DNA of 64,000 nt from a virus, in the IMG/VR virus record IMGVR_UViG_3300045988_113168. The stretch is one strand, 5' to 3'. The notes below the pieces were generated by a model. The model saw only the letters and a program-made list of their open reading frames with translations. It had not been told where the DNA came from and made no database searches. The number at the start of each line of letters is the position of its first letter. The first letter of the stretch is position 1. The position numbers and the translations under genes are program-made. Below, in pieces: positions 24,348 to 63,610 of this stretch.

Positions 24348-25175
24348 ATGATTATTGACTGCAAATCTATCGCACAATATATCAAAAATAAAATCAAGAA
24401 TATTATCGCAGAAGATGACTACGCTCCTGTTTTATATATTTATCAAGTGGGGAATAACCCTGCGTCCAATGCTTATATTCGCGGCAAGCTGCGTGACTGT
24501 GAAGAGGTGGGAATCGAAGCAGAGCTTATTAAATTGCCAGAAAATATCAATGAAGACGAATTAAACAATAAAATACTGGAAGATTATAATTGGGAAGATG
24601 TGGACGGTATCATTGTCCAGCTCCCGCTGCCAAAACATATCGATCCCAAAAATATTTGTATTCCAGATGAACTTGATGTTGATGGCTTTAATTCCACATC
24701 CAAATTTCAGCCATGTACTCCACTTGGTGTTATGAAGATTTTCGACTCCATCGGTTACGATCTGGATGGCAAGAATGTGCTTGTATGCGGTCAATCTGAT
24801 ATTGTTGGTCGTCCGCTGGTTGATATGCTGATTAAGCGCCACTGTAATGTGATCTCTGTGAACAGCAGCGGAAGTTTTATGAAATGCACGGCTCTTGCAA
24901 TGGATATGGTCGATGTGATCATCTCTGCAGTCGGAAAACGTAATTTCATCACACCGCTTGGTCTTGATCGAGTAGAGGTCTGCATCGATGTTGGCATCAA
25001 CTATGACGAAAACGGAAAGCAGCACGGTGATTGCGCTGACGCTGTTTATGAGATGGAGAATATCAAAGTTACACCTCGTATCGGCGGTGTTGGGCTTATG
25101 ACACGTGCCATGCTACTTTATAATGTATGTGTGGCAAAGTACGGAGCAGTGAAGATGGAAGAGGTGATTGGATGA
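24348..25175 (+). CDS. folD: Bifunctional methylene-THF dehydrogenase/methenyl-THF cyclohydrolase FolD
   Basis: YIRGKLRDCEEVGI, DGIIVQLPLP, PCTPLGVMK, GQSDIVGRPL and GGVGLMTRAMLL motifs. RBS AAAGGAGG. Confidence 0.85.
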   Translation: MIIDCKSIAQYIKNKIKNIIAEDDYAPVLYIYQVGNNPASNAYIRGKLRDCEEVGIEAELIKLPENINEDELNNKILEDYNWEDVDGIIVQLPLPKHIDPKNICIPDELDVDGFNSTSKFQPCTPLGVMKIFDSIGYDLDGKNVLVCGQSDIVGRPLVDMLIKRHCNVISVNSSGSFMKCTALAMDMVDVIISAVGKRNFITPLGLDRVEVCIDVGINYDENGKQHGDCADAVYEMENIKVTPRIGGVGLMTRAMLLYNVCVAKYGAVKMEEVIG

Positions 25176-25366
25176 AAGAAGTCCCAATTTGGGAAAAGAC
25201 GACTCTGACGTTAGATGAAGCGGCTGCTTACACGGGGATTGGGGTCTGCCGACTAAGAGCGATTACTGATGATGAAAACTGTCCATTGGTACTTTGGGTG
25301 GGGAATAAACGTCTTATCAAACGTAAGGCTCTCGAAAAATATATAGATCAAACGTATTCTGTTTGA
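25172..25366 (+). CDS. xis: Excisionase-type HTH DNA-binding protein
   Basis: LTLDEAAAYTGIGVCRLR helix-turn-helix. ATGA overlap with folD. Lies immediately upstream of the integrase. Confidence 0.65.
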   Translation: MKEVPIWEKTTLTLDEAAAYTGIGVCRLRAITDDENCPLVLWVGNKRLIKRKALEKYIDQTYSV

Positions 25367-25439
25367 AATATAGGCTCTGATGTGGTATACTCATGGTGTC
25401 ACACCAGAGCTTCTTATATAACGTAAGGAGTTCCGCATC

Positions 25440-26606
25440 ATGATAAGACGTAAAGATAATAATGGCAAAGTTTTAAAAGACGGCGAGAGCCAGAGAAAGG
25501 ATGGGAGATACCAATATAGATGGACAAACAAACTTGGAAAACGCTCAATAATATACGCCACTTCACTTAAAGAATTGAGAGAAAAAGAAGCTGAAATCCA
25601 AGAAAAACTTAATTTGGGTACAACGTCTACTTCAAAAATCACAGTGTACCAATTAGCAAAAAGACATCTCGAAGAAACAAAACTTACTATTAGGCCAAGC
25701 AGCTATAAAACAAAATCGCAGAATTTGAAAATCTTTCAGAATCACCTAATTGGGGAAATGAATGCAACTGATATTTTAGTGCGCGATGTAAAACAATTTG
25801 CACGAGAATTGGATAACGAAGGATATTGTTATACAACAATCAGAGATGTCATGTCTTTAGCTAGACCGGCATTTCAAGAAATGTTTGATGAGAATATAAT
25901 TCCTAGAAATCCATTCGTTTTTAAATTAAATACAGTTGTCAAATGTGACTCAAAAGAAAAAGAAATATTAACAGAAGAGCAGTATCAAAATCTGATCAAG
26001 TTCATGAAATCTAGTCGAGTATATAAAAGGCATGTTGGGATGGTGATGCTTTTGCACGAGACAGGACTTCGAGCAGGAGAATTATGCGGGCTAACAAAAA
26101 AGTCATTTGATTTTGATAACAACACTGTTACTATATCTCATCAGATGGTGTACGATGGAAAGAGCGGCGGGCTGTATTTAGCACCTACAAAAACAGAAAG
26201 TGGGATAAGGACTATCCCATTATCTAAAGACGCCATCATTGCTTTTGAAGAAGCGGTAAAACAACGTCCGATTGTAAAAGCAGAGAGAATAATAGATGGG
26301 CAAGCCGACTTCTTGTTTATAGCAAAAACTGGAAGGCCCTATACGAATAAAAACCTTGTTAGAATTTTTGAAGGACTAATCAAAGCATATAATAGTTGCC
26401 ATGATGAACCATTGCCTGAAGTCACTGCCCACAGTATGCGCCACGAATATTGTACACGGCTTGTCAAAGCCAAGATGGATGTTAAATCGGTTCAATACCT
26501 CATGGGGCATTCGTCGCCCGATATAACCTTGAAAGTGTATACTCATATCTTAAAAGAAGAGACCGAAGCAGAGGCAATCAAACAGTTTAATAGGATTGTT
26601 TCCTAA
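25440..26606 (+). CDS. int: Tyrosine recombinase/integrase (Tn916-type with N-terminal arm-binding domain)
   Basis: N-terminus RKDGRYQYRW... Catalytic residues in HETGLRAGEL, AHSMRHEY and LKVYTHI. Confidence 0.85.
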   Translation: MIRRKDNNGKVLKDGESQRKDGRYQYRWTNKLGKRSIIYATSLKELREKEAEIQEKLNLGTTSTSKITVYQLAKRHLEETKLTIRPSSYKTKSQNLKIFQNHLIGEMNATDILVRDVKQFARELDNEGYCYTTIRDVMSLARPAFQEMFDENIIPRNPFVFKLNTVVKCDSKEKEILTEEQYQNLIKFMKSSRVYKRHVGMVMLLHETGLRAGELCGLTKKSFDFDNNTVTISHQMVYDGKSGGLYLAPTKTESGIRTIPLSKDAIIAFEEAVKQRPIVKAERIIDGQADFLFIAKTGRPYTNKNLVRIFEGLIKAYNSCHDEPLPEVTAHSMRHEYCTRLVKAKMDVKSVQYLMGHSSPDITLKVYTHILKEETEAEAIKQFNRIVS

Positions 26607-51900: not shown

Positions 51901-54900
51901 GAGATTTTACAATAGCCTGTCCTAGTTTAGAAATCTAACTAGTGCTCTCTCCAAGGAACCCTTTTGCTGCAGCGTACTTATTAGAGCCTCCAACGCCAAG
52001 GAAGCTCTTTCCTGCGTCCAAGAGGCGTCCCCAGAATCCTTTACCAGAACTCTTATCAGAGAACGTACCAACCGCACGCTGCAGACGATTCTACAGACCC
52101 GTAATTCCACCGTTCTGAGTAGAACCATTCAGATTGCCAAGCACGTCTCCGAGCTTAGTCAGTGTATCAATCAGTGTCTCAAGCTTGGTGATAACATTAG
52201 AAACATTAGTTGCTCGCTGGACCGCCTTCATATTGGAGACAACAGAGGCCATAAATCCATCGTAGTGACCTTCCATCTCTGCAAAAGTCATAGCCTCGAA
52301 CTGAGACGTATATTTCAGTTTCTTCTGATAGTCGTCCCAGCTTGTGCCAATAAGGTTAGTGGCTTCCTGAACCTTATCTTTGAGCTTGTTCAGCCGGTCG
52401 ATTTCTTCCTGTTTCTTATACTCACGGCGTTTGCTGTTGAGGTCACTCTGAGCGTCACGAACTGTACTTGCATCAGCCTCCCACTCGTAACCATTCTCGC
52501 CATAGACGCGAGTGGTCTTATTGGCCTGTGCTTTCGCGAGAGCATCCTCGGCTTTTTGCAGTTCAATCGCACGCTCTTGAGCATCATTCTGCTCATTCAG
52601 CGCGTCGATACGTTTGTCGATAACATCAATCCATGCATCACCCTGAATCTTCAGGTCGTTGGACTTTTTATCATTGAGCTTATTGAAAATATCAAGCAGT
52701 GAAGAGAAAAGGTCTTTAAGGTTAGAGATGACAGACTGTAACTTTTGAGCCTCAGTACCCATCCCCTTCATATGGTCGGTAACATCCCAAGTACCATTTG
52801 CTACCTTTTCAAGAATTTCGGCGTAACGATCTCCGAGGTCAGTACCCTTATATGTTTCTGCAAGGACTTTTAGCTGCTCAATGTAAAGGTCTCTAAAGGC
52901 TTCCTTGTTAAAGACGAGTTTCCCGCCTTCTTCTTTAAGGCAAGCCGCATACTTTGGATTAAGAGACATATACTTCTGGATGGTATCTTGACTTAATTCT
53001 CCATAAGCGTTATACTCATCTACAATATCAAACAAATCGTTGAATGCACTCTGGTAGTCATCCATTGAATTATTGATTTTGCTAAGAGTACTTCCGATTC
53101 CGTTAATATAATCCTCAATGCTGAGTGCATTGCTTGCAATCTTATTCTTTGCATCTTCAAAGCCCTTGGCAAGATATGTTCCAGCGGCTCCGCCAGTCTC
53201 CTTACAAGCTGCAATCATCTTGTCGAGACTATCAAGGAACATATCCTTAAAAGCGTCGCTGTTGTAATCAATATCTCCAGTCTCGGGATTCAATGCCCCA
53301 GCGTACTTGTCATTCGTAAACAAGTCTGTGTTATCATATAGGTCACGAATTGCCTGATACTTTTTCTCAACATCGTCAGAATCTAGCAGTCCAAACGGAT
53401 TGTCAATCTTGTTTTTGCTAACATCGGACAGCCCAGAGAATGCGGATTTTATAGCGTCTGTCTTTTCTTTGGCATCTGCCATCGCGGTGCCGTAGCCCTT
53501 GATGGCATCAGTTAACTGCTCAAAAGAAATGGTTTCGGAATCGACACTAGAGTTCAACCAGTCAAGAATCTTCTTCATCTCGCCAGCAGACTTGCCACCA
53601 TCATTAGCTGCATTCGCTTCCTCAAGCTGCGCTCTGACAAAAGTGCGGAATTTTGCGGTATTAAGTTCAAGTTTTCCATTTTGCTCAGTTAAGCAAGCAG
53701 TAAACTTATCATCAACACCGATTAACGACTTCATGGTGTCTGCACTAATATAGCCATATTGGTTATATTCTTTCATCGCTTTTGTTAAGGTATCAAATGC
53801 GGATGCAATATCAGATACAGACTTCGCGGTAGATTTATTGTTCTTGTTGGTCTTATTTGTCGGGAACCCATTAAGCTGATTTGTTAGTTTTTGTCCACCC
53901 CTTAGAGCAGCGTTCATATTGGTGTACAACAGAGAAAGCTGAGTATTTGTGCGATTCGTGATTTCCTCTAGCTTTGCAGGATCTACACCGCGTTCACCTG
54001 CTTTTTCGACTTCGTTCGCAAACTCTTGAGCCGCGCTATATGTAGCGGTTGCCGCAGTAGCATTTTTCAAAGCGGGGAGAAGATTCTCAAGAGCAGTCTT
54101 TTCGGCCTTGGTTTTCTCTTTTAGGTTATCAGTGCTTTCAGCTGTGTCATCGGCAGTAAGGTTTGCAACCTCATGTTGTGCATTAGAAAGAATTGTGGCG
54201 GCAGCTTCTGCATATTCAGCGGCAAGTAATTCGGCATAGCTCTGTTTATTTATCTGGAGCTTACCATTAACAAGCTCAAGGCAATTCAAATACTCGGTGT
54301 TCATCGACAGTAAAGACTGAAGAGAATCGAGACTCATGTAGCCATACTGATTGTACTCTTCCATTGCACTGGTAGAAGCTTTATACGCAGACTGGATTTC
54401 ATCCATTTTGGAAGAAATATCTTCCATCTTCTGTGCGCCAGCAGCCAATGCGTCAACACCATTTGCAGAAGACTGAGCTACAATACCAACTTGAACAAGT
54501 GCTTGGATAAACGCATTTACACCGTTTGTGTCAGCAGAGAAGTCCATGTCGGCCAAAGCTTTACGAAGATTTGCGAGAGCTTGCGCTTGATCATCGGACA
54601 ATCCTTCGTTTGTACCCCACAAGAGTTCATTCAGCTTACTTGCATCAAATCCATCAATCGTATCTTTCAGAGTTTGAACAGCAGAATTTACCTTATCGAA
54701 AGTAAAACTGACATCCATACTGTTATTATTGTCATTCTGCCAAAAATCAACTGCTTGAAGTTTTCTACGAGCATTCGTGTTATTGTTGATGGCATCCGTT
54801 GAGTCATTGTAAGAATTTACATCATTACGGAGAGCAGATTGTTCATCAAGCAAGAACTGATACAGACTATGATACGTTCCACCGGCAGCTCGCTCGGCTT

Positions 54901-55789
54901 CGGTAGTATTATCAATAACATACTTTAAGGCTTTGCCAACTTCGTTGTAATAGTCAACAATAGAATCCGCATCATTTAACTTGTCAGGTCCGTAACCACC
55001 AAACTTATTAAAGACATCAATACCAGCATTTTTAATCTGGTCACCCATATCCATTTCAGGAGCCGACCAAACAGTAAGATAATGCGTCCGATTATTCTTC
55101 TTGGCTGTATCAACAAGCTTGTCGCTTTGAGCATCTTTGTTTTGTGTCAACTCATAACGAGATGCCTCCAACTGCTCCGCTGTAATATCCTGAAGTAAAC
55201 CAAGCTGCTCTTCATATTTACCATTTTGCAGGTCAATCTTACCAAGTTTGTTTTCATCAAGCGTTCCTTGTTCTTTCGCAAGATCAAGAATCTCTGTCTG
55301 AATATCTTTTGCTTGGTCAAAGTCCTCAGTATCCCAACCAGACTTGTCGCCAAGTTCTTCATACGCACTGACTAAGTCCTTTAAGGAGAAAGTTGTATCC
55401 TGTGCTGCGTCCGCCGCTTCCTTAGACTTCGTTGCGACATTTTGCACTCGTTGTGCCGCTTCCGTAATCTTCTTAGTGCCCCAAGAGATGAGCAGGCCAA
55501 TTCCAACACCCAACGCGGCATTGAGCAATAAAGCTCTTGCGCGAAGGGCAAGTAGTTTAAGGGAAAAACCTTCAGTTGCGTCGCCTGCGGCCTCTGTGTT
55601 AGCTTTACTTTGCTTCAACGATGTGATAAAATCAGAAATAGAAGGCTTAGTTCCATCAAGAGAACGCTGATAGGAGAGAATTGCATTTCTGAGTTGAAGA
55701 ATTTTCGCTTTTACGTCGTTCCAAAACTCATTTTTTACACCATCTTCGTCAGCAGTAAACAAGAAAGATAATATCGAAATTTTAATCAT
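48950..55789 (-). CDS. Tape-measure-like protein, C-terminal portion; 2279 codons including two in-frame TAGs (52091-52093, 51935-51937)
   Basis: Track ORFs 52091-55789 and 48950-51835 share one frame (3954 nt apart). The 85 bridging codons have no TAA/TGA and are Gly-rich like the flanks. Long coiled coils, Gly-zipper hydrophobic blocks, and two G.YNVDE.G.E..V motifs. No SD before ATG 55789. Confidence 0.7.
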
Positions 55790-55802
55790 TGAGGAGAGAA
55801 GA

Positions 55803-56210
55803 ATGAATAAAATTCTATACTGCCCGTGGTGTGAAAAATATGTTAAGGGTGTTTGGTATTCATGCCCATTTTGTAGCGCACAAACTATCTATATAAAAGC
55901 ATGGGATAAAAAATCTGACGAAGAAAAGAAAGAATGGTTAAAGAAATTTCCAAAAGTTGACCCACCAAGACCAATCAAAGACAAATCACTACTTCGTGAG
56001 GCGGAAAAATTCGACAAACAAGCTCGTGCTGAACTTGCTCAAGAGGAAGCTCGCCTTGCTCAATACAAACCAACTTGCCCAGTATGCCATTGTCCTGATT
56101 TGGAGAAAATCTCCGGCTTTGACAAGACTGTGGATATAGCGGTCTGGGGCGTATGGTCGAGAAAGGCGCATAAGCAGTTTAAGTGCAAAGCGTGCGGATA
56201 TGAATTTTAA
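55803..56210 (+). CDS. Double zinc-ribbon protein, copy A
   Basis: RBS GAGGAG. CPWC...CPFC and CPVCHCPDLEKIS...CKACGYEF. Confidence 0.65.
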   Translation: MNKILYCPWCEKYVKGVWYSCPFCSAQTIYIKAWDKKSDEEKKEWLKKFPKVDPPRPIKDKSLLREAEKFDKQARAELAQEEARLAQYKPTCPVCHCPDLEKISGFDKTVDIAVWGVWSRKAHKQFKCKACGYEF

Positions 56211-56222
56211 AGGAGAATAAAA

Positions 56223-56663
56223 ATGCTTCAAAGAACAACAAACGGTGTTCCTCAAAAAGATTTTTGTCTTCATTCTCCTGCAAGTGTAGAATTCAACGGA
56301 AAGGAAGTTCGTGGACTTACAGCTTATTGGGATACTGGAAGCTCCGTATGCTGCATTGCAAGAGAAATTGCCAACAAACTTGGCTTACCCATCATGCCAA
56401 CCCAACAAGAAGTTAAGTCAATCACAAACTCTAAAATGGCTGACATTACTGTCTGCACATTAAAAATTGGATATGGCGATGACATAATCCTTCCTGATAC
56501 ATTGTTTTGCGTTATGGACCCGGAAGATTTTGAATATGAACTTCTTATCGGACAAGATATTATAGGATATGGAGAACTACATACCAAATACAATCCAGCA
56601 ATGGAACGGATTAGACTTGAGTTTGAGATTGACCCTTCTGTAATTCCAGACCCTGAGATTTAA
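56223..56663 (+). CDS. Retropepsin-like (clan AA) aspartic protease, copy A
   Basis: RBS AAAGGAG. Active-site WDTGSS and LLIGQDII motifs. Confidence 0.65.
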   Translation: MLQRTTNGVPQKDFCLHSPASVEFNGKEVRGLTAYWDTGSSVCCIAREIANKLGLPIMPTQQEVKSITNSKMADITVCTLKIGYGDDIILPDTLFCVMDPEDFEYELLIGQDIIGYGELHTKYNPAMERIRLEFEIDPSVIPDPEI

Positions 56664-56760
56664 GTATAGCCTTCCATTGTGAAAAAATTCGTTTCCGTTC
56701 TTCCTGAGTAAACGGAGGCATCTTCCGTACTCTTACGGAAACAATGTTAAAATCGTTCAT
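56611..56760 (-). CDS. Possible small ORF (49 aa)
   Basis: GGAGGT 6 nt before the ATG. Overlaps the 3' end of protease A by 53 nt. May be spurious. Confidence 0.25.
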   Translation of the reverse strand: MNDFNIVSVRVRKMPPFTQEERKRIFSQWKAILKSQGLELQKGQSQTQV

Positions 56761-56786
56761 TCAAATACCTCCGATACAAAAGAGAG

Positions 56787-57209
56787 ATGAAATCTATGGA
56801 AAAATATGTACGGTATTGCCCATTTTGCGACAAATATTACCATAAAAGAGATTTGTTGTGCGCGTTTTGTTTGAGAGATACTATTCTATTGCCTCAATGG
56901 AACGGAATGAGCGAGCAGAAAAAAATCAATTGGAGGTTTACAAACAGACCCAAAAGAGATATTTCAGAATTAGACCCGAATTTTGTTAAAGAGATGCAAG
57001 ATAAAGCCAATGCCTTTGACGCTCAATATAGAGCCGATTTAGAGGAAAAGGAACATCCGAAGTATGTGCCCGCCTGCCCTGTGTGTGGATCGCCAGACTT
57101 ACGCAAGATCAGTACAACCTCAAAGGTTTTGGATGTTGCTTTCTGGGGATTTGCCGCTGGCAAGCCAAAGAAAACATATCATTGCAACAATTGTGACTAT
57201 GAATTTTGA
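56787..57209 (+). CDS. Double zinc-ribbon protein, copy B
   Basis: CPFC...CAFC and CPVCGSPDLRKIS...CNNCDYEF. Paralogue of 55803-56210. Confidence 0.65.
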   Translation: MKSMEKYVRYCPFCDKYYHKRDLLCAFCLRDTILLPQWNGMSEQKKINWRFTNRPKRDISELDPNFVKEMQDKANAFDAQYRADLEEKEHPKYVPACPVCGSPDLRKISTTSKVLDVAFWGFAAGKPKKTYHCNNCDYEF

Positions 57210-57221
57210 ACATAAATAAAG

Positions 57222-57250
57222 CCCCTATCTGGCACATCACCAGATAGGGG
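57222..57250. terminator. Bidirectional terminator
   Basis: CCCCTATCTGG / CCAGATAGGGG 11-bp stem between convergent genes. Confidence 0.65.
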
Positions 57251-57264
57251 ATAATGTGAGCTAT

Positions 57265-57759
57265 TTAGTTTTCGTTCATCTCTTTTGCAACGGCCACAGC
57301 ATCTTGGAATGTATACTCATGAGCAGTAAACTTCGTTTCGCTTAGAGAAGGAAGTCTGTATGTAAATGTGGTCTTGCCATCAAAGTTGCTAACAGCGAAA
57401 TCGCCAGCGGAGATGATGTCCATACCAATCAACAGACCAATCTTTTGATACTGGATCGCCATCTCACAGACGGTGACATTGCTGAGACGGATACCATCAC
57501 AAATAATAATATCCATATTGTAAATATTCGCTCCTTCAACTTCGTTTGAAGCCGAAATAACATTAGTAGTGCCGATAGGTTGGAGTTTTAATTCTTTCGC
57601 AAGGGTAGGAGAGATACAAGTGCATGTTGCACCAGTATCCCAAACAGCCTTCGCTATAGTCATATTCTTGCCGTTCTTTACGACTACTGGCGAGATTAGC
57701 TTACGCTCGATTTCAGCTGATGTAACTACGATTGCGGAAAGATTCTCCATTTTAATCAC
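57265..57759 (-). CDS. Retropepsin-like (clan AA) aspartic protease, copy B
   Basis: WDTGAT and LLIGMDII motifs. ATGA overlap with the upstream gene. Confidence 0.65.
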   Translation of the reverse strand: MIKMENLSAIVVTSAEIERKLISPVVVKNGKNMTIAKAVWDTGATCTCISPTLAKELKLQPIGTTNVISASNEVEGANIYNMDIIICDGIRLSNVTVCEMAIQYQKIGLLIGMDIISAGDFAVSNFDGKTTFTYRLPSLSETKFTAHEYTFQDAVAVAKEMNEN

Positions 57760-57959
57760 CCTACAATTTTCTTGTCTTTATTTTCAGAGAACCACTTGGC
57801 TTCTCTGGCGGCATAATAGGAATTAAGAAATTTTAAATGCTTTTTTGATACAGACAGAAGTGACCTCATGGTGTCTACAGTAATATAACCATGTGCAAAA
57901 AATTCATCAACGGCATTTCTACCAACCTGACGGTCTTTTCTTCTTTTGGAAACGTACAT
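57756..57959 (-). CDS. Hypothetical basic protein (67 aa)
   Basis: ATG 57959 after GAGGTG. Confidence 0.5.
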   Translation of the reverse strand: MYVSKRRKDRQVGRNAVDEFFAHGYITVDTMRSLLSVSKKHLKFLNSYYAAREAKWFSENKDKKIVG

Positions 57960-58014
57960 ATATTTCACCTCGAATGTTATCATGAATTGTATGAGTTGTC
58001 AAGCCGAAAAACCG

Positions 58015-58287
58015 TTACGCTTTCCAGTTTGCATTTTCAACGCACGGCTGAATGTTCACAGAACATCCGTGTTCATCGCAGGTTGTCATAATTTGATTTA
58101 CAATGACATCATCAGACTGCTTAGAGTGATAAGGCTTTTGATACCGAACAAATACTTCATCCATTTTATTTTGAAGATTTTCCATAACGGACTTTGCTAG
58201 GTCATCGGAATTACCAATGGGTTTTCGCTGCTCTCTAATCACATTGATGAGGGTGGCGAGTTCTTTTACGTCAATTTCAATTTTCAA
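58015..58287 (-). CDS. Hypothetical protein (90 aa)
   Basis: TTG 58287 lies 6 nt after GAGGTG. The track ORF extends to TTG 58314. Confidence 0.45.
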   Translation of the reverse strand: MKIEIDVKELATLINVIREQRKPIGNSDDLAKSVMENLQNKMDEVFVRYQKPYHSKQSDDVIVNQIMTTCDEHGCSVNIQPCVENANWKA

Positions 58288-58307
58288 TTTAATCACCTCG
58301 ATTATAA

Positions 58308-58400
58308 AATACAAAGCTTATCGATGTAGCTATTTGGGGCCGGGCAAGCAGAAAGCCCGGCAAACAGTTCAAGTGCAAGAACTGTGGGTACGAATGGTAA
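58308..58400 (+). pseudogene. Truncated third copy of the zinc-ribbon gene (C-terminal 30 codons only)
   Basis: NTKLIDVAIWGRASRKPGKQFKCKNCGYEW* aligns with ...VDIAVWGVWSRKAHKQFKCKACGYEF* of copy A. The downstream CATAAATAAA-CCCCT hairpin is also shared with copy B. Confidence 0.65.
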
Positions 58401-58431
58401 GCTATAACTAACTCAACAGGCATAAATAAAA

Positions 58432-58462
58432 CCCCTGTCGGATGGCATCCGTCCAACAGGGG
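58432..58462. terminator. Bidirectional terminator
   Basis: CCCCTGT / ACAGGGG stem. Confidence 0.55.
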
Positions 58463-58480
58463 AGTTGTATGTTATTTAAC

Positions 58481-59104
58481 TTAGTGTTTTGGCATCTCAA
58501 CTAATCCGCCAATATTGAACTTTTGATACGGGGAATTGTTATCCATGTACATGAGTTCAAATCGCTCAACTTCACTCATCTTGATACAAAGGACAGTCCC
58601 ATCTACACGATGCTCTTTAAGTGCAGTTGGGATATCATCGGCACTATTTGCCGTACAATGATGAATCACCACAATGTAATCATCGTCAGCACTTGAAAGT
58701 TTTCCGTAGATTACCTTCCCATCTTTTGTGAAAACTAGAATCTTTGTGCCACGTTTCGTATCAAAGAATTTAGTCCAAATATTGTCGGCAGTTTCAACAC
58801 TTAGAAAATGGGCAAAGAATTTTCTTGCCGGAAAACTATTCTTTATTAAATAAAATAAGATACCGCAAATAAAACCAATGGCAACATAAAGTAGGGCTGA
58901 CGGAACTACTGTAATTAAACATTGTGGCGCGTAACCATCCACAAAATTCTTGAAAAGATATCCAAGCGAAATACTAATAATAACGTATGCCGCATACTCG
59001 ATTTTTTTCATCGAAAGACGAGTATAAACCCAGACGCAAATTGCTCCTGGAACAAAATAAGAAAATAGTGAGTTAAAGTCACTTATCAGTTCCGTTATTT
59101 TCAC
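58481..59104 (-). CDS. Membrane protein (3-4 TM) with C-terminal Sm/SH3-like beta domain
   Basis: Hydrophobic N-terminal half. C-terminal ILVFTKDGKVIYGKLSSADDDYIVV. Confidence 0.6.
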   Translation of the reverse strand: MKITELISDFNSLFSYFVPGAICVWVYTRLSMKKIEYAAYVIISISLGYLFKNFVDGYAPQCLITVVPSALLYVAIGFICGILFYLIKNSFPARKFFAHFLSVETADNIWTKFFDTKRGTKILVFTKDGKVIYGKLSSADDDYIVVIHHCTANSADDIPTALKEHRVDGTVLCIKMSEVERFELMYMDNNSPYQKFNIGGLVEMPKH

Positions 59105-59261
59105 TTTGACCTCCTTCTTTTGGTTTTACGGTTCGGAGACTTTGGAAAAATTCTACATCCGAATCGACATTGAAATCCTTACCTTTACCATCAACATACG
59201 AGAATTGCATATCGCGACTCGAAATTTCATAATCCGGCACATGCTTCTTATTGTTTTCCAT
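59079..59261 (-). CDS. Hypothetical protein (60 aa)
   Basis: RBS AAAGGAG. First gene of the minus-strand operon. Confidence 0.5.
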   Translation of the reverse strand: MENNKKHVPDYEISSRDMQFSYVDGKGKDFNVDSDVEFFQSLRTVKPKEGGQSENNGTDK

Positions 59262-59284
59262 GATTTAACACTCCTTTTACAAGA

Positions 59285-59313
59285 GTGTATCACGGTTCAG
59301 AGATAGTGTCAAC
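59285..59313 (-). promoter_or_regulatory. Promoter for 59261->58481
   Basis: On the minus strand: TTGACA, 17-nt spacer, TGaTACACT. Confidence 0.5.
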
Positions 59314-59356
59314 TAAACTTTGCTACACAGGGTTCCACAATAATCCAAAACAGAGA

Positions 59357-59386
59357 TTGACAAGATATTACGATATATCCTATAAT
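59357..59386 (+). promoter_or_regulatory. Promoter for 59444-59644
   Basis: TTGACA, 18-nt spacer, TATAAT. Confidence 0.5.
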
Positions 59387-59443
59387 AGATGAGCAATCAC
59401 TATGTACTATGCTAAAATTCCAACTGAAAGGAGGTCGCCAGTT

Positions 59444-59644
59444 ATGACGCATAAAGAATTTAATGAAATCTTAGAGACTGAAACGAACAACGGTATTGAT
59501 CTTTTAATGCAAAAAATGCGAGGACTCGAGGAAAAATCTCAAACTGAGCAGATAGCCAATATGATTTGTTTAAGTATGGGCGCTACAATTAAAATTATAA
59601 TAGCCATACTTAAACAGTGCGGCGTTATCAAATTCGAAGACTAA
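59444..59644 (+). CDS. Hypothetical protein (66 aa)
   Basis: ATG after AAAGGAGG. Confidence 0.55.
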   Translation: MTHKEFNEILETETNNGIDLLMQKMRGLEEKSQTEQIANMICLSMGATIKIIIAILKQCGVIKFED

Positions 59645-59703: not shown

Positions 59704-60036
59704 TTACTTCAAAAGTTCAGCGATATCTTCAGCAGTCATGCCATTGGCCAGTGCGTTGGCAACAATGACTTCTGCCTTTTTGCGATTCAACTCTGCCGCA
59801 ATCTTTTCATCGGCATCAGCCTTTTTCTTTTCGAGTTTTGCAATCTCTTTATTGAGTTTTTTCAGCTCTGCTTTTTTTGCTTTTCTTTCAGTATTCAGTG
59901 CGGCAATATTCGAGCCGAGAGATGCGATTTCTTTAGCAATGGATTCTGCTGCGGCATTTTTCTCAGCGATCTGTGCTGCGTAATCAACGCCGTTAAGAAC
60001 CTTTGTTTTGTTCTTGCTTCCTTTGGGTCTAGCCAT
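59704..60036 (-). CDS. AT-hook-like / coiled-coil DNA-binding protein
   Basis: RBS GGAGGT. N-terminal RPKGSKNK, then a Lys/Ala/Glu coiled coil. Confidence 0.6.
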   Translation of the reverse strand: MARPKGSKNKTKVLNGVDYAAQIAEKNAAAESIAKEIASLGSNIAALNTERKAKKAELKKLNKEIAKLEKKKADADEKIAAELNRKKAEVIVANALANGMTAEDIAELLK

Positions 60037-60145
60037 AATAAAATACCTCCGTATATTTTGGATACGCGATTGTACTTTTATTATAGCCAGAAAATCTCAT
60101 GAAAGCAACCTCTTTTTATGTATTATAAATTACATTATAGTGATA

Positions 60146-60175
60146 TTGACAGGATATGACAGGCGGGTGTATAAT
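60146..60175 (+). promoter_or_regulatory. Promoter of the toxin-like mRNA
   Basis: TTGACA, 18-nt spacer, TATAAT. Confidence 0.5.
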
Positions 60176-60319
60176 AATGGGGCAACCAAGAGTTCACGTT
60201 GAACTTGCCAATCATAGACGTAAAGAATAGGCGGTCACCCTCCCAGTAGCCGGAAGGCGAAAAGGAGCGTGTATTTCTCTAACTGCCTTTCGGCAATCTT
60301 GTCGGAAGGAGGATGTGTA

Positions 60320-60433
60320 ATGGATTTTGGATTCATTTACAACTCACTGATACAAACTGTTGGCGTTATCGCCGCAGTCATCGGTGCTGTTTACACTGTC
60401 CGTTGCTATAACGATAGTCATGGCAATAAGTAA
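60320..60433 (+). CDS. 37-aa hydrophobic peptide, type I toxin-like
   Basis: AAGGAGG 7 nt before the ATG. MDFGFIYNSLIQTVGVIAAVIGAVYTVRCYNDSHGNK has one TM segment plus a polar tail. Confidence 0.5.
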   Translation: MDFGFIYNSLIQTVGVIAAVIGAVYTVRCYNDSHGNK

Positions 60434-60546
60434 AAGAGCCGCCTATAGCCACTAGGCAGCTCTTCATGATTGGGATTAAGATTGTCCAAGTCTTGATTCC
60501 ATGTTTGATTATCTACCGAGGGTTCCGTCTATTGAACTCTTGGTTG
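60433..60546 (-). ncRNA. Candidate ~110-nt antisense RNA (antitoxin-like)
   Basis: Runs from the minus-strand promoter at 60552-60580 to the terminator at 60435-60463. Would be complementary to the 3' UTR of the plus-strand transcript. Confidence 0.4.
60435..60463 (-). terminator. Terminator of the antisense RNA
   Basis: AGAGC-GCCTA / TAGGC-GCTCT stem, followed on the minus strand by TTTTACTTATT. Confidence 0.5.
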
Positions 60547-60551
60547 CTTTT

Positions 60552-60580
60552 ATTATACACATTTTGAAGTACACTGTCAA
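60552..60580 (-). promoter_or_regulatory. Consensus promoter on the minus strand
   Basis: On the minus strand: TTGACA, 17-nt spacer, TATAAT. Embedded in the plus-strand terminator. Confidence 0.55.
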
Positions 60581-60600
60581 CGAACAACAGTGTACTTTTT
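60567..60600 (+). terminator. Rho-independent terminator of the toxin-like mRNA
   Basis: AAGTACACTGT / ACAGTGTACTT stem followed by TTTTT. Confidence 0.6.
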
Positions 60601-61057
60601 CAATTTTGTTCAAAATTGTTCAAAGTTCATTGAATTTTTAGTTCTCTTACTTATTCCACGCCAGAGAACAGCGTGTCTCCTCATTCCACCTACTTCTTTA
60701 AGTCGTCTGGTTACGTCTGAGGTGGACTTCTGAACTTTCGTCCAGAACTGACTATCCTTCCAGTGGTTGCTCACTGACCCTTTTTAGTCGATGAACCTTC
60801 CGCTTTCCTACATTATATAATAGGGAAGTGGATCGGCTGCTGACCGCCCATTGTAAACGCTACTTAGCACTCAATTATTACCATATTTTTACAATACGAT
60901 AAAACCGAGCTTTTATCTCAGCATATAGCATCCATATCCTTGTTTCTATCTTTCGATTCCTACCTTATATAAATATAATAATAGGCGATATGGCTCTTAG
61001 GGTTTCCCAGCACTCTAGGGGCTATTTTATTTTTACATGGTGCCGCATCCTATGTTA

Positions 61058-63493
61058 TCAAACGCAACAAACATAAGAGGGCATATTAACTTTACCCGCA
61101 CCATTCTTGAGCTTTCCGCTTATCTGCATTACGGACAACACGCCAGAGATGGTAGCTGTAATGGCCGGAATAGAACCTGCAAGGTTGACCATTCCGTCTG
61201 CTGCATCAACAATCTTTGTTGCAAGAGTAACAAAGAATTTGATGAGGTCACTGCTCATAACGTCGTTTGAGAATTTCTCAAAGCTGGCGTTAAGCTGCTT
61301 TAAGCGACCCTCAATTGAATCCATCATGCGCTCTTGTTCAGTCATTGCTGAATTAGAGCTGTTAGCGGCATCTTCCATTGATTTTTCAGCAATGGAGAAT
61401 TGCTCGATCACGGAAAGTACCGCATTCGAGTTCCTTTTGCCGCCAAGCATCTCTGTGACGTTAGCTTTACTAACATCAGTAAGTTTATCCCATACGGCAG
61501 AAATCTCTTTCAGGATCTGATATGTACTCTTAAATTCTGTACCGGCGGCATCCTTCATAATGTCTACGCCAGTTAAAGATTTCAATTCACTTCGCAGTTC
61601 AGAAACAGAACTTGCCATATCATCAACTGAAACGCCAAATGCCTCTGCGTCAGTCTTACTGGCTCGCAGATACATTGAAATTGTTTTTAAAGTTGTGCCT
61701 ACGGTATCCGGGTCCTGAAGTACAGAGTTGGCCGCACTAATCAACGAAACGGACTCTTCAAACGAGTTCCCGGCTGCCGATAATGCGCTTGCCGATCTGA
61801 CGAGTGCCTCCGCAATACCACTTTCGGAAATGGGTTCGTTGTTGCCCACTGAGTTAAGAACATTGACGACGTGTTCTACTTCGTCAGCTTCCATTCTAAA
61901 TCCCTTTAGAATAGAGACTAGATAAGAAGCTGCGTCAGATGCACTATCAATTCCATCACCAATGTTACTTAGGACAGTGGACCACTTTGCAAGCTTTTGT
62001 GATTCGTCCAGTGTATAGCCTAGACGAGACCATTCTGCTGTACTGTCAATAACATCAGAGATAGAAGCACCAAGCTCACGCGCTTGACTTGAAGCAGACG
62101 ACAAAAAGCTTGAGTATGCCGATTCAGTCTCATTCGTGACTTTTTTCAAGTTAGTCATAGATGTATCTATATCTACGACGTTATTATAAACTTCTCGTAG
62201 ACCCTGTTTAACCATAGCCACGCCAGCCATAGCGATAGCAGTCTGGAAGTGCTCCTTAAACAGACGAGACAGTTTTTGACCAAGAGTTTCTGTAGTGGCC
62301 CCACATCTGCTGGCCTCAACCTCAAGGTTTGATAGTCTTGCACTAAGATCAGTAACATCGCCTTCACAGCCAGCAGCAGAAGCTTTTATTCCGTTTAAAC
62401 TATCAATTAGCCAAGAATATTTACTTTTATTTGCAATAGAGTCTTCTAACTTCGTTGCACGTTCATAAACACTCTTAAACTTCGTCATGTCAACATTGGC
62501 TTGATTCAAATCTCTAAAATCAAATCCAAGTTCTTTTAAATGTTGACTTGTAGAATCAATAGTTGTATCAAGAATCTTGCATTTTTTATCAAAGTCTTGA
62601 ATTGCTTTCCCTGGTGTAGTGTTCTCAATAGAAGCAAGCTGATCTCGCAATTCTTTTAACTTTCCAGATGTTTTTCCAGTGCCATCTTCTCCATATAAAT
62701 ATTTTTTGATATTATCATTTTTATAGTTGGAGTTATTCTTGGAATAGTTTTCAAGAGACTGAATCTTTTTTTGATACTTTTCATACTCGGATTCTTGAGA
62801 TGTGAGAGCCTTTTTTAAATCATCTGCAATTTCTTGATTTTGTTTTTTTAGTTCTTTTGCAACCGAATCAGCACCTTTTGCAGTATTTCTGTCAGCATTG
62901 AATTTTCCGGTTTTTTCGATATCCTCAAGCTTTAACTTCTGAGATTCCGTAATTACTTCTTTTGTTTTAGTCTTGAGTTTATCCATCTCATCGTTGATTG
63001 CGCTCAATCTAGTCTGTACCGCTTTCAACTCAGATGATTTGTTTCCATTAGCAATTAACGATGCTTCATCCGCTTTTAGCTTTGCTTGACGATTTGCAAG
63101 GCTGAAAAGGCGAGAAATATCACTTTTTGAAGTATCCTGTGTTTTTGTGGAACCAGACTTTCCGGTATCAACCTTAACTGTCTGCTTTGCCGCAGATTGC
63201 ATAGCTTTTTTAAGCTGTGCGGTTACTTTGCTCTGGTCGATCTTAACATCAAGTGTGACCTTTGGAGTTTTTAGTTTTCCACTCTTGACTACCTTATCAA
63301 GCGCATCATTTATATTACGGATAGTGTCGTTTTGATTTACTCCAAAAGCAATTTTTACTGGTTTTTCTTTATAATGCTCCTTAACAGAATTAAATTGCTG
63401 GTCTAATTCTTTTTTATTTGTGTCAATAACAACCTTGACCTTAATGGCTGTTACGGCAGAAGACTCTGTGCCAGTATTTTCTTTTTCATCCAT
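61058..63493 (-). CDS. Tape-measure protein, N-terminal portion (TP901-type core region)
   Basis: ATG 63493 after GAGAGGTGA. N-terminal coiled coil. The core ...AGVAMVKQGLREVYNNVVDIDTSMTNLKKVT...GASISDVIDSTAEWSRLGY...ISESGIAEALVRSASAL... resembles the TMP core family as I recall it. Ends TGA TAA. Confidence 0.75.
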   Translation of the reverse strand: MDEKENTGTESSAVTAIKVKVVIDTNKKELDQQFNSVKEHYKEKPVKIAFGVNQNDTIRNINDALDKVVKSGKLKTPKVTLDVKIDQSKVTAQLKKAMQSAAKQTVKVDTGKSGSTKTQDTSKSDISRLFSLANRQAKLKADEASLIANGNKSSELKAVQTRLSAINDEMDKLKTKTKEVITESQKLKLEDIEKTGKFNADRNTAKGADSVAKELKKQNQEIADDLKKALTSQESEYEKYQKKIQSLENYSKNNSNYKNDNIKKYLYGEDGTGKTSGKLKELRDQLASIENTTPGKAIQDFDKKCKILDTTIDSTSQHLKELGFDFRDLNQANVDMTKFKSVYERATKLEDSIANKSKYSWLIDSLNGIKASAAGCEGDVTDLSARLSNLEVEASRCGATTETLGQKLSRLFKEHFQTAIAMAGVAMVKQGLREVYNNVVDIDTSMTNLKKVTNETESAYSSFLSSASSQARELGASISDVIDSTAEWSRLGYTLDESQKLAKWSTVLSNIGDGIDSASDAASYLVSILKGFRMEADEVEHVVNVLNSVGNNEPISESGIAEALVRSASALSAAGNSFEESVSLISAANSVLQDPDTVGTTLKTISMYLRASKTDAEAFGVSVDDMASSVSELRSELKSLTGVDIMKDAAGTEFKSTYQILKEISAVWDKLTDVSKANVTEMLGGKRNSNAVLSVIEQFSIAEKSMEDAANSSNSAMTEQERMMDSIEGRLKQLNASFEKFSNDVMSSDLIKFFVTLATKIVDAADGMVNLAGSIPAITATISGVLSVMQISGKLKNGAGKVNMPSYVCCV

Positions 63494-63610
63494 ACTGTTG
63501 GTCACCTCTCTTTTCCATTTTCAACAATTCCTTTCAAAATAAAAAAGAGAAGCGGCCAGCTTCTTCAAGCCAGCCTCCTCTCATTCAAATTTTCCAAATA
63601 AATTGTGTGA

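Follow-up and report, generated by a model that had tools for sequence, protein, structure and literature searches.

A double zinc-ribbon gene flanked by retropepsin-like protease genes in a candidate accessory-gene hotspot of an SPbeta-like gut phage

We analyzed a 64,000-nucleotide (nt) stretch of viral DNA (IMG/VR record IMGVR_UViG_3300045988_113168, the whole of which is hereafter called the window), with attention to positions 55803 to 58400, where two double zinc-ribbon genes (ribbon A and ribbon B), two genes for retropepsin-like aspartic proteases (protease A and protease B), and the end of a third ribbon gene lie together. A sequence-only reading of this DNA had taken them for duplicated zinc-ribbon plus retropepsin pairs with a decayed third copy, situated in a variable island inside a tail module; the four open reading frames (ORFs), their motifs, the 30-codon remnant, and two hairpins were all found as it had described them. 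The window is part of a large temperate phage that encodes a Pol III alpha fragment, a RecD2-like helicase, a ligase, NrdD, and a Tn916-type integrase, and its minus-strand tail module includes an 815-amino acid (aa) PhageMin_Tail tape-measure protein. Its relatives are uncultured human-gut contigs of 75-150 kb whose tail genes match the SPbeta YomU and YomW Pfam families, and the lineage is one of SPbeta-like, temperate, uncultured gut phages. When the locus, ribbon B, protease A, and the YomU-like neighbor were searched against 50,697 GenBank (INPHARED) phages, no usable match was obtained, and among GenBank phages protease B matched Leptospira LE1-like phages only.

Ribbon A (55803-56210, plus strand) encodes a protein of 135 aa with the knuckles CPWC..CPFC and CPVC..CKACGYEF, and ribbon B (56787-57209, plus strand) one of 140 aa with the knuckles CPFC..CAFC and CPVC..CNNCDYEF, the probable start of the latter being ATG 56796, where its homologues start. 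The proposed paralogy was borne out, as the two ribbons are 39% identical (expectation value, E, of 5e-29) and the two proteases 33% identical (E = 4e-11). Ribbon B is the resident canonical copy, with 135 homologues in public data and the same slot in every relative, and ribbon A is an added paralogue that sits in the position of a small upstream partner of protease A. Searches of the ribbon proteins against Pfam, PHROGs, NCBIfam, and PADLOC gave nothing above thresholds. The AlphaFold2 (AF2) model of ribbon B had a predicted local distance difference test (pLDDT) score of 80.8, with the N-terminal ribbon and the helices confidently modeled; a conserved hydrophobic insert of 25-28 residues in the C-terminal domain (SKVLDVAFWGFAAGKPKK) was not placed by AF2. 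Foldseek with this model retrieved only generic zinc ribbons from the PDB (best E 0.56) and one family member only from BFVD. The ratio of nonsynonymous to synonymous substitution rates (dN/dS) was 0.15 for the N-terminal part of the ribbon and 0.02 for its C-terminal domain, and 0.09 for both window proteases; the ribbon genes and the proteases are, thus, all under purifying selection. With this low dN/dS, and with 135 ribbon and 698 protease B homologues detected in public data, these genes are not chance ORFs. Arms-race diversification of the N-terminal part was not seen at the divergence sampled, where the dN/dS was 0.15 and no pair exceeded 1. Recent gene conversion was also rejected as an explanation for the conservation seen at the ribbon 3' ends, given that the window copies differ in ~35% of their nucleotides and that the dN/dS of the C-terminal domain is so low.

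The C-terminal domain of the ribbon protein has a distribution of its own. A search of the ribbon profile against 1.84 billion representative proteins recovered 3,407 clusters (at 50% identity), from proteins 74-330 aa long, the match always falling at the very C-terminal end. This ~48-aa domain was found fused to numerous unrelated N-termini, among them generic zinc ribbons, DUF5411, the L7/L12 C-terminal domain, and TPR repeats, and 0 Pfam families scored above the gathering score for it. In Clostridia genomes, ribbon-domain genes were again found with a large minus-strand gene on one side and a tape-measure gene on the other, and they sometimes form tandem arrays of up to eight copies (L194:557-4501; other examples are L198 and L225).

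Protease A (56223-56663, plus strand, 146 aa) has its own strong ribosome-binding site and carries the motifs WDTGSS and LLIGQDII, and protease B (57265-57759, minus strand, 164 aa, probable start ATG 57750) carries WDTGAT, LLIGMDII, and GDFAVSN, the last of which is missing from protease A. With the Pfam gathering scores used as cut-offs (28.2 bits for PF13975 and 24.3 bits for PF13650, which form the gag-asp_proteas / Asp_protease_2 pair), protease A scored 31.8 and 27.1 bits and protease B 35.5 and 37.9 bits, respectively, and these profile matches assign both to the clan AA retropepsin-like aspartic proteases. The DTG and LLIGxDII residues are invariant in an alignment of 29 protease sequences. 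The AF2 model of protease B (pLDDT 88.6) showed the single-lobe retropepsin beta-barrel fold, and its top Foldseek matches were APRc, DDI1, and the feline immunodeficiency virus (FIV) protease, with E from 5e-6 to 1e-3 (APRc structure 5c9f, E = 5e-6, template modeling (TM) score 0.69; DDI1, E = 1e-4); the sequence profile also matched DDI1 (9e-5). This family was found in the genomes of at least 554 bacterial species from many phyla, and protease A has 22 copies in the relatives, with a mean identity of 95%. In PADLOC, protease B matched PDC-M08B (PDLC04402; E = 1.8e-8), and protease A had no match at E ≤ 0.1; neither window protease matched the PHROG head or tail protease families. This is in agreement with the earlier statement that no named defence system was recognizable here, PDC-M08B being an unvalidated candidate and the only one found.

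The signals around these genes were then placed relative to them. A sigmaA-type extended -10 promoter-like element (TTTACT-17-TGnTAAAAT; 55604-55632, plus strand) lies inside the 5' coding region of the neighboring giant tail gene and antisense to it. It precedes the first ribbon gene by some 170-200 nt, and most of 51 distinct loci from relatives have the same element at that distance. The hairpin at 57222-57250, which separates the convergent genes of ribbon B and protease B, has a stem of 11-13 bp, a folding free energy (dG) of about -21 kcal/mol, and a z-score of -4 relative to shuffled controls; because its U-run is on the minus-strand side, it is likely the terminator of the protease B transcript, and it is possibly bidirectional. 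A second hairpin at 58432-58462 (z = -4, again with a minus-strand U-run) is the ancestral partner of the remnant ribbon gene and is predicted to be the terminator of the convergent gene for a 207-aa membrane protein. No signal of a structured RNA was found in the 124-nt spacer at 56664-56786 (z = -0.9). As to a promoter for protease B and the small genes ahead of it, the only -35/-10 match (58002-57974) overlaps the ribosome-binding site of the small upstream gene and leaves no room for a leader, and it was not relied on. Perfect TTGACA-18-TATAAT matches, on the strand opposite to the tail genes, were observed farther along the window at 59357-59386 (plus) and 60146-60175 (plus), and an 80-aa ORF (59402-59644) that relatives also have, as cluster c160, begins 16 nt past the first of them; these two sites are probably further moron-type units.

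The island lies between conserved flanks. On its left is the gene for a giant coiled-coil tail protein of 1232 aa (cluster c6; 52091-55789, minus strand), for which no Pfam match was found and whose length in relatives is 700-2100 aa; its start codon and the divergent start of ribbon A are 13 nt apart. The right anchor is the gene for a 110-aa coiled-coil protein (cluster c8; 59704-60036, minus strand), conserved in relatives, and the tape-measure gene identified by Pfam (61058-63505, minus strand) lies on the far side. To survey the content between these flanks, we used 79 IMG/VR loci found with the ribbon profile and a second sample of 69 loci anchored on the unrelated c8 gene. At least one full ribbon gene, on the strand opposite to the tail genes, was present in 79/79 and 69/69 loci, and in both samples its place was always the interval that separates the tape-measure gene from the next giant tail gene. 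The typical relative has the giant tail gene (700-2100 aa, minus strand), a single ribbon, a gene for a membrane protein of ~205 aa, the 110-aa gene, and the tape-measure gene, and it has no protease. Among the 79 loci, 45 had a single ribbon with no plus-strand cargo, 27 had at least two full-length ribbon genes, and 11 had ribbon 3' fragments of 43-80 aa ahead of the cargo. Retropepsins were present in 20 of the 79; when presence was counted over 66 distinct loci, 31 had a retropepsin and 35 did not, and 26 had neither a retropepsin nor c4, a putative hydrolase described below. Hence, the variable island inferred earlier from one genome was recognized across the lineage, with changing content between conserved flanks as in moron hotspots, and the conserved role of the ribbon protein itself would not depend on any protease.

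The third ribbon copy bears on how this content changes. The remnant (58311-58400, plus strand) retains the final 30 codons of a ribbon allele of the P0041 type, has no start codon, and is preceded by an in-frame TAA; its translation is NTKLIDVAIWGRASRKPGKQFKCKNCGYEW, ending at the stop codon. On the left, window positions 55002-58309 are collinear with L040 and L043 at 81-83% identity, with the two ribbons, the two proteases, and two small ORFs (clusters c85 and c50) in common. On the right, positions 58368-59292 are 95-96% identical to L057, L105, and L088, where the same block begins 33 nt before the stop codon of an intact ribbon gene and runs through the hairpin and the membrane-protein gene; positions 58310-59640 are absent from L040 and L043. 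Because the block begins inside a ribbon gene in other phages and the segment is lacking from the collinear ones, the remnant is a recombination joint, the left end of an imported cassette. Therefore, the cassette turnover proposed from the sequence alone was supported by this mosaic block, and the remnant itself stands, but not its description as a copy that decayed in place. In addition, the allele of the ribbon C-terminal domain tracks the downstream cassette (17/21 for the membrane-protein gene c2 and 10/13 for protease A), which is consistent with breakpoints inside the ribbon gene, and the N- and C-terminal ribbon alleles are shuffled relative to one another. An integron-like cassette array was considered and rejected, since no integrase lies beside the array, the hairpins differ in sequence, and the joints are in ribbon coding sequence.

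The cargo of the island is diverse. The default occupant of the slot beside the ribbon is the membrane protein of cluster c2, represented in the window by the 207-aa product of 58481-59104 (minus strand), which gave weak DUF6338 and LSM matches; c2 was found in 52/79 loci. Next in frequency were c4 (a protein of ~216 aa; 27/79), the retropepsins, a pair with a Panacea domain (SocA-type antitoxin; 13/79), and DUF3800 (7/79). Plus-strand cargo, i.e., protease A and c4, begins 6-14 nt past the ribbon stop codon, and the minus-strand cargo is found on the other side of the hairpin. The N-terminus of c4 (MSLVMAIANKEGIVVSADRR) weakly matched the proteasome beta subunit and connectase (E = 0.03), suggesting that c4 is probably an N-terminal nucleophile (Ntn) hydrolase with Ser1 as the nucleophile; no Pfam family was found for it, and a single-sequence scan for relatives outside the lineage returned the same loci only. 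Across its copies, c4 measures ~211-219 aa (L059:5427-6077, L032:5891-6547, L016:9514-10170) and has the invariant N-terminus MSL(V/I)(M/I)A(I/M)..(K/Q).G(I/V)..S.D.R. The slot of other relatives (L059:7570-8596, L055:5824-6543, L047:5701-6540) was observed to hold a Panacea gene with a 198-aa partner, a second Panacea protein, or a DUF3800 protein, and Panacea and DUF3800 are typical toxin-antitoxin or defence-island cargo.

We also examined which genes accompany the proteases. Directly upstream of protease B is a small ORF overlooked in the sequence-only reading (cluster c85; 57756-57983, minus strand, 75 aa), with a probable start at ATG 57959 (57756-57959, 67 aa) behind the ribosome-binding site GAGGTGA and a stop codon 5 nt ahead of the protease B ATG. 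It accompanies protease B in L019, L020, L021, L040, L043, L045, and L104, and a 99-aa ORF (cluster c50; 58015-58314, minus strand) travels with this cassette. Thus, c85 is the conserved operon partner of protease B, and it is the slot that places protease B beside ribbon B. The 75-aa ORF had no Pfam match at E ≤ 1, and the idea that c85 is a diverged DUF5678 protein was discarded after its profile aligned to that of the DUF5678 partners with an hhalign probability of 1.2%. The stop codon of ribbon A is 12 nt before the protease A ATG, and in 21/22 copies protease A is immediately behind a ribbon ORF, at a distance of 20 nt or less; some of those ribbon ORFs are 5'-truncated, and every protease A locus also keeps a separate canonical ribbon. 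It follows that the earlier pairing of each ribbon with its adjacent protease was borne out only in part, pair A alone being a tightly linked unit, and failed for pair B, where the partner is the 67-aa ORF.

To see these pairs in a broader setting, the neighborhoods of 80 retropepsin loci from diverse bacterial genomes of many phyla (L111-L190) and of 44 ribbon-domain loci outside the hotspot (L191-L234) were compared. A co-directional ORF of 77-100 aa ending 0-30 nt upstream of the retropepsin was found in 71/80 loci across phyla; these partners are mutually homologous, and 23/42 matched Pfam DUF5678. A ribbon match was found in 1/80 of the retropepsin loci and a retropepsin in 2/44 of the ribbon-domain loci, so the families hardly meet outside the hotspot, and together with the many relatives that have a ribbon and no retropepsin this spoke against the zinc-ribbon plus retropepsin module put forward before, lack of co-occurrence in other genomes being a refuting outcome that the sequence-only reading had itself named. 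PDC-M08B was matched by 26/29 members of the retropepsin family and PDC-M08A by one DUF5678 partner, suggesting that the DUF5678 plus retropepsin pair is probably the PADLOC candidate PDC-M08; the 75-aa ORF, ribbon A, and ribbon B did not match PDC-M08A. Elsewhere, the retropepsin pair was found among Abi_2, Panacea, Mrr, and IS605 genes. Within the phage group there are at least four retropepsin lineages, each with its own partner (ribbon A, c85, a DUF5678-like protein, or the 'MNEEMRKLCE' family). The DUF5678-type pair occupies the same hotspot in L044 and L093, and a further type, with 'MNEEMRKLCE' partners of 79-104 aa, was found between the tape-measure and 110-aa genes in 16/66 loci. This last type is co-directional with the tail genes and lies ~80-570 nt upstream of the 110-aa gene (L245-L324; L260:6427-6939, L256:6424-6921), and the equivalent stretch of the window (60037-61057) holds small ORFs only. 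In the record of a Leptospira LE1-like phage (L235), the protease ORF of a small-partner pair was observed to be unannotated. Both window pairs consist of two small adjacent genes predicted to be co-transcribed, as type II toxin-antitoxin systems do, a likeness of architecture only.

Collectively, these results inclined us, with somewhat more confidence than doubt, to regard the locus as a moron-type accessory-gene hotspot in the tail module of an SPbeta-like gut phage, in which cassettes are exchanged at the ribbon gene. In this model, a single double zinc-ribbon gene would be the constant anchor, antisense to the tail operon, read from the conserved sigmaA-like promoter, and ending at a hairpin, and cargo would build up on either side of that hairpin. 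Plus-strand cargo would enter between the ribbon stop codon and the hairpin, so riding on the ribbon transcript, and minus-strand cargo would be placed past the hairpin. Phages would swap cassettes by recombination with breakpoints inside the ribbon gene, the C-terminal ribbon segment moving with each cassette, so that duplicates and 3' scars would accumulate. The ribbon gene would, in this way, supply promoter, terminator, and exchange homology, and the proteases would be accessory cargo. The window can then be seen as three stacked cassettes: the first would be ribbon A with protease A; the second, the 99-aa ORF, the 67-aa ORF, and protease B; and the third, the ribbon remnant, its hairpin, and the 207-aa membrane protein. 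The two window proteases would be independent cases of a small upstream partner joined to a homodimeric retropepsin-like protease, a general two-gene architecture whose commonest form is DUF5678 plus retropepsin. Such retropepsin pairs are probably toxin-antitoxin-like or abortive-infection/exclusion modules expressed by the prophage, where the small partner would hold or direct the protease until a trigger frees it to cleave its target. The hotspot model fits because the ribbon is universal, the proteases are optional and polyphyletic, the joints are inside the ribbon, the co-cargo includes toxin-antitoxin and Abi genes, and the small-partner architecture is general.

Several points weigh against this model. 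The evidence behind a defence or toxin-antitoxin label would all lie in architecture, mobility, neighborhood, and an unvalidated PADLOC candidate, and the partners in the window, ribbon A and c85, match neither DUF5678 nor PDC-M08A. The promoter-like site upstream of c85 is doubtful, and the cassette of protease B may simply be transcribed along with the tail operon. It is unusual for a moron to be as deeply conserved in position as the ribbon gene is. Finally, two putative protease folds stand directly behind ribbons (retropepsin A in 21/22 copies, and c4, at 30 nt or less, in 36/47), which could indicate a functional ribbon-protease link.

Such a link is the main rival explanation. In it, ribbon and protease would form a genuine functional system, with the constant C-terminal ribbon as an adaptor, regulator, or substrate of the co-transcribed proteases and the variable N-terminal part providing specificity; pair A would be one such system, and the ribbon-then-c4 pairs of relatives would be another. 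The tight spacing just mentioned is what would be expected of it, as are the extreme constraint on the C-terminal domain, the position of ribbon A exactly where DUF5678-type partners lie, and the diverged phage L021, which again joins a ribbon-domain protein, two retropepsins, and c4. Nevertheless, the ribbon stands with no plus-strand cargo in 45/79 loci, and 26/66 have neither protease type; in some cases all that precedes the cargo is a ribbon fragment (65, 80, or 52 aa) that is 5'-truncated and lacks a start codon; and the canonical ribbon is kept separately wherever protease A occurs. Furthermore, the two families do not co-occur outside the lineage, and the C-terminal allele also tracks the convergent c2 gene, as physical linkage would have it. 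We hold this explanation to be unlikely.

A second rival would make the proteases counter-defence or host-takeover factors that cleave host immune or regulatory proteins, with the partners serving as chaperones or inhibitors until infection. Phage accessory islands commonly mix defence and anti-defence genes, and the enrichment of retropepsins in this lineage (31/66), their three positions in the tail module, their rapid turnover, and the purifying selection on them are all in line with this idea. The same family and two-gene architecture are, however, widely distributed on chromosomes from many phyla, frequently with no phage tail genes nearby, and the family matches a PADLOC candidate, the PDC candidates originating from defence-island enrichment. 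This explanation therefore seemed to us quite improbable. It is also doubtful, to a somewhat greater degree, that the ribbon family represents a new class of phage-encoded, protease-coupled conflict systems, in which the C-terminal domain would dock or regulate at least two protease folds and the ribbon gene would double as a recombination site. As for tail or tape-measure maturation, which the sequence-only reading had offered, for the tape-measure protein, as its alternative, the genes do have the tape-measure gene on one side and the next giant tail gene on the other, and protease B points the same way as the tail operon, as does the retropepsin type found just ahead of the 110-aa gene in relatives. 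This role is nevertheless very unlikely: of the relatives that have the same tail genes, about half (35/66) have no retropepsin and 26/66 lack c4 as well; protease A runs antisense to the operon; the family occurs mostly outside phages, always with a small partner; and no PHROG head or tail protease family was matched.

With the hotspot model preferred, the locus would represent a highly active, hitherto undescribed hotspot for accessory genes in a large uncultured group of phages from the human gut. It brings to light three uncharacterized families, namely the constrained zinc-ribbon domain (~3,400 clusters), the pan-bacterial pair of small partner and retropepsin, and the Ntn-hydrolase-like cargo. 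The small partner plus retropepsin pair is conserved across phyla and apparently undescribed in the literature searched, where no paper was found on PDC-M08, on the function of DUF5678 (the single DUF5678 result was unrelated), or on retropepsins in phage defence or toxin-antitoxin systems, and the window supplies two natural partner swaps for it. If the retropepsin pairs are indeed defence or toxin-antitoxin modules, aspartic proteases would join the short list of protease-based effectors in phage conflicts.

Other features of the window and its relatives were observed in passing. The 1232-aa ORF of cluster c6 has no Shine-Dalgarno sequence, and the two very large coiled-coil tail proteins that border the island (815 and 1232 aa) look like one tape measure that has been split or doubled, the hotspot lying where the split would be. 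In relatives (L012-L015, L019, L029), a XerC/D-type tyrosine recombinase of ~329 aa is encoded within the tail module, two genes past the tape-measure gene, which is reminiscent of SPbeta yomM. At 24348-26606 of the window, a gene for a FolD-like bifunctional dehydrogenase/cyclohydrolase adjoins the Tn916-type integrase, near a switch in coding strand and GC skew (~28 kb); it is possibly an auxiliary metabolic gene or the mark of a prophage edge.

When compared with known systems, the window proteases have the catalytic DTG, and protease B by its model also the fold, in common with Rickettsia APRc (5c9f), the RVP domain of eukaryotic DDI1, and Pseudomonas RimB and Rlo. APRc is membrane-anchored, and RimB and the Rlo proteins come from other operons (PMC11957791, PMC11957051, PMC4140852). 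None of the four is phage-borne or has a small upstream partner, unlike the window proteases. PADLOC PDC-M08, an unvalidated system of a small A component and a retropepsin-like B component, has the same general architecture, with a retropepsin of ~130-165 aa, and its B component is matched by protease B; its A component, on the other hand, is matched by neither c85 nor ribbon A, and protease A matches no PADLOC model. The pair of DUF5678 (PF18929) and retropepsin has the motifs WDTGA(T/S)xxCI, LIGMDIIxxGDFAVSN, and FxFRxPS in common with protease B, and its small gene lies tightly upstream, as c85 and ribbon A do, within ~30 nt; the window has unrelated proteins in place of the DUF5678 partner, and protease A has lost GDFAVSN. 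The generic zinc ribbons (TFIIS/Rpb9/TFS-type and the FmdB Zn_ribbon_8) have the CxxC...CxxC knuckles of the window ribbons, and the public automated names 'RNA polymerase-like' and 'TFIIS' given to ribbon homologues derive from this resemblance, yet there is no significant sequence or structure match between them, the best Pfam scores being below the cut-offs. Known accessory hotspots and morons of phages include the P2 and P4 hotspots and the HK97 gp15 moron in the tail module. The window locus resembles them in its conserved flanks, in a highly variable content with many toxin-antitoxin, Abi-like, or unknown genes, in having a promoter-like element and putative terminators of its own, and in its location inside late genes. 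It differs from them in that it holds a lineage-universal and strongly constrained ribbon gene, which is itself duplicated and truncated by exchange, with the breakpoints inside it.

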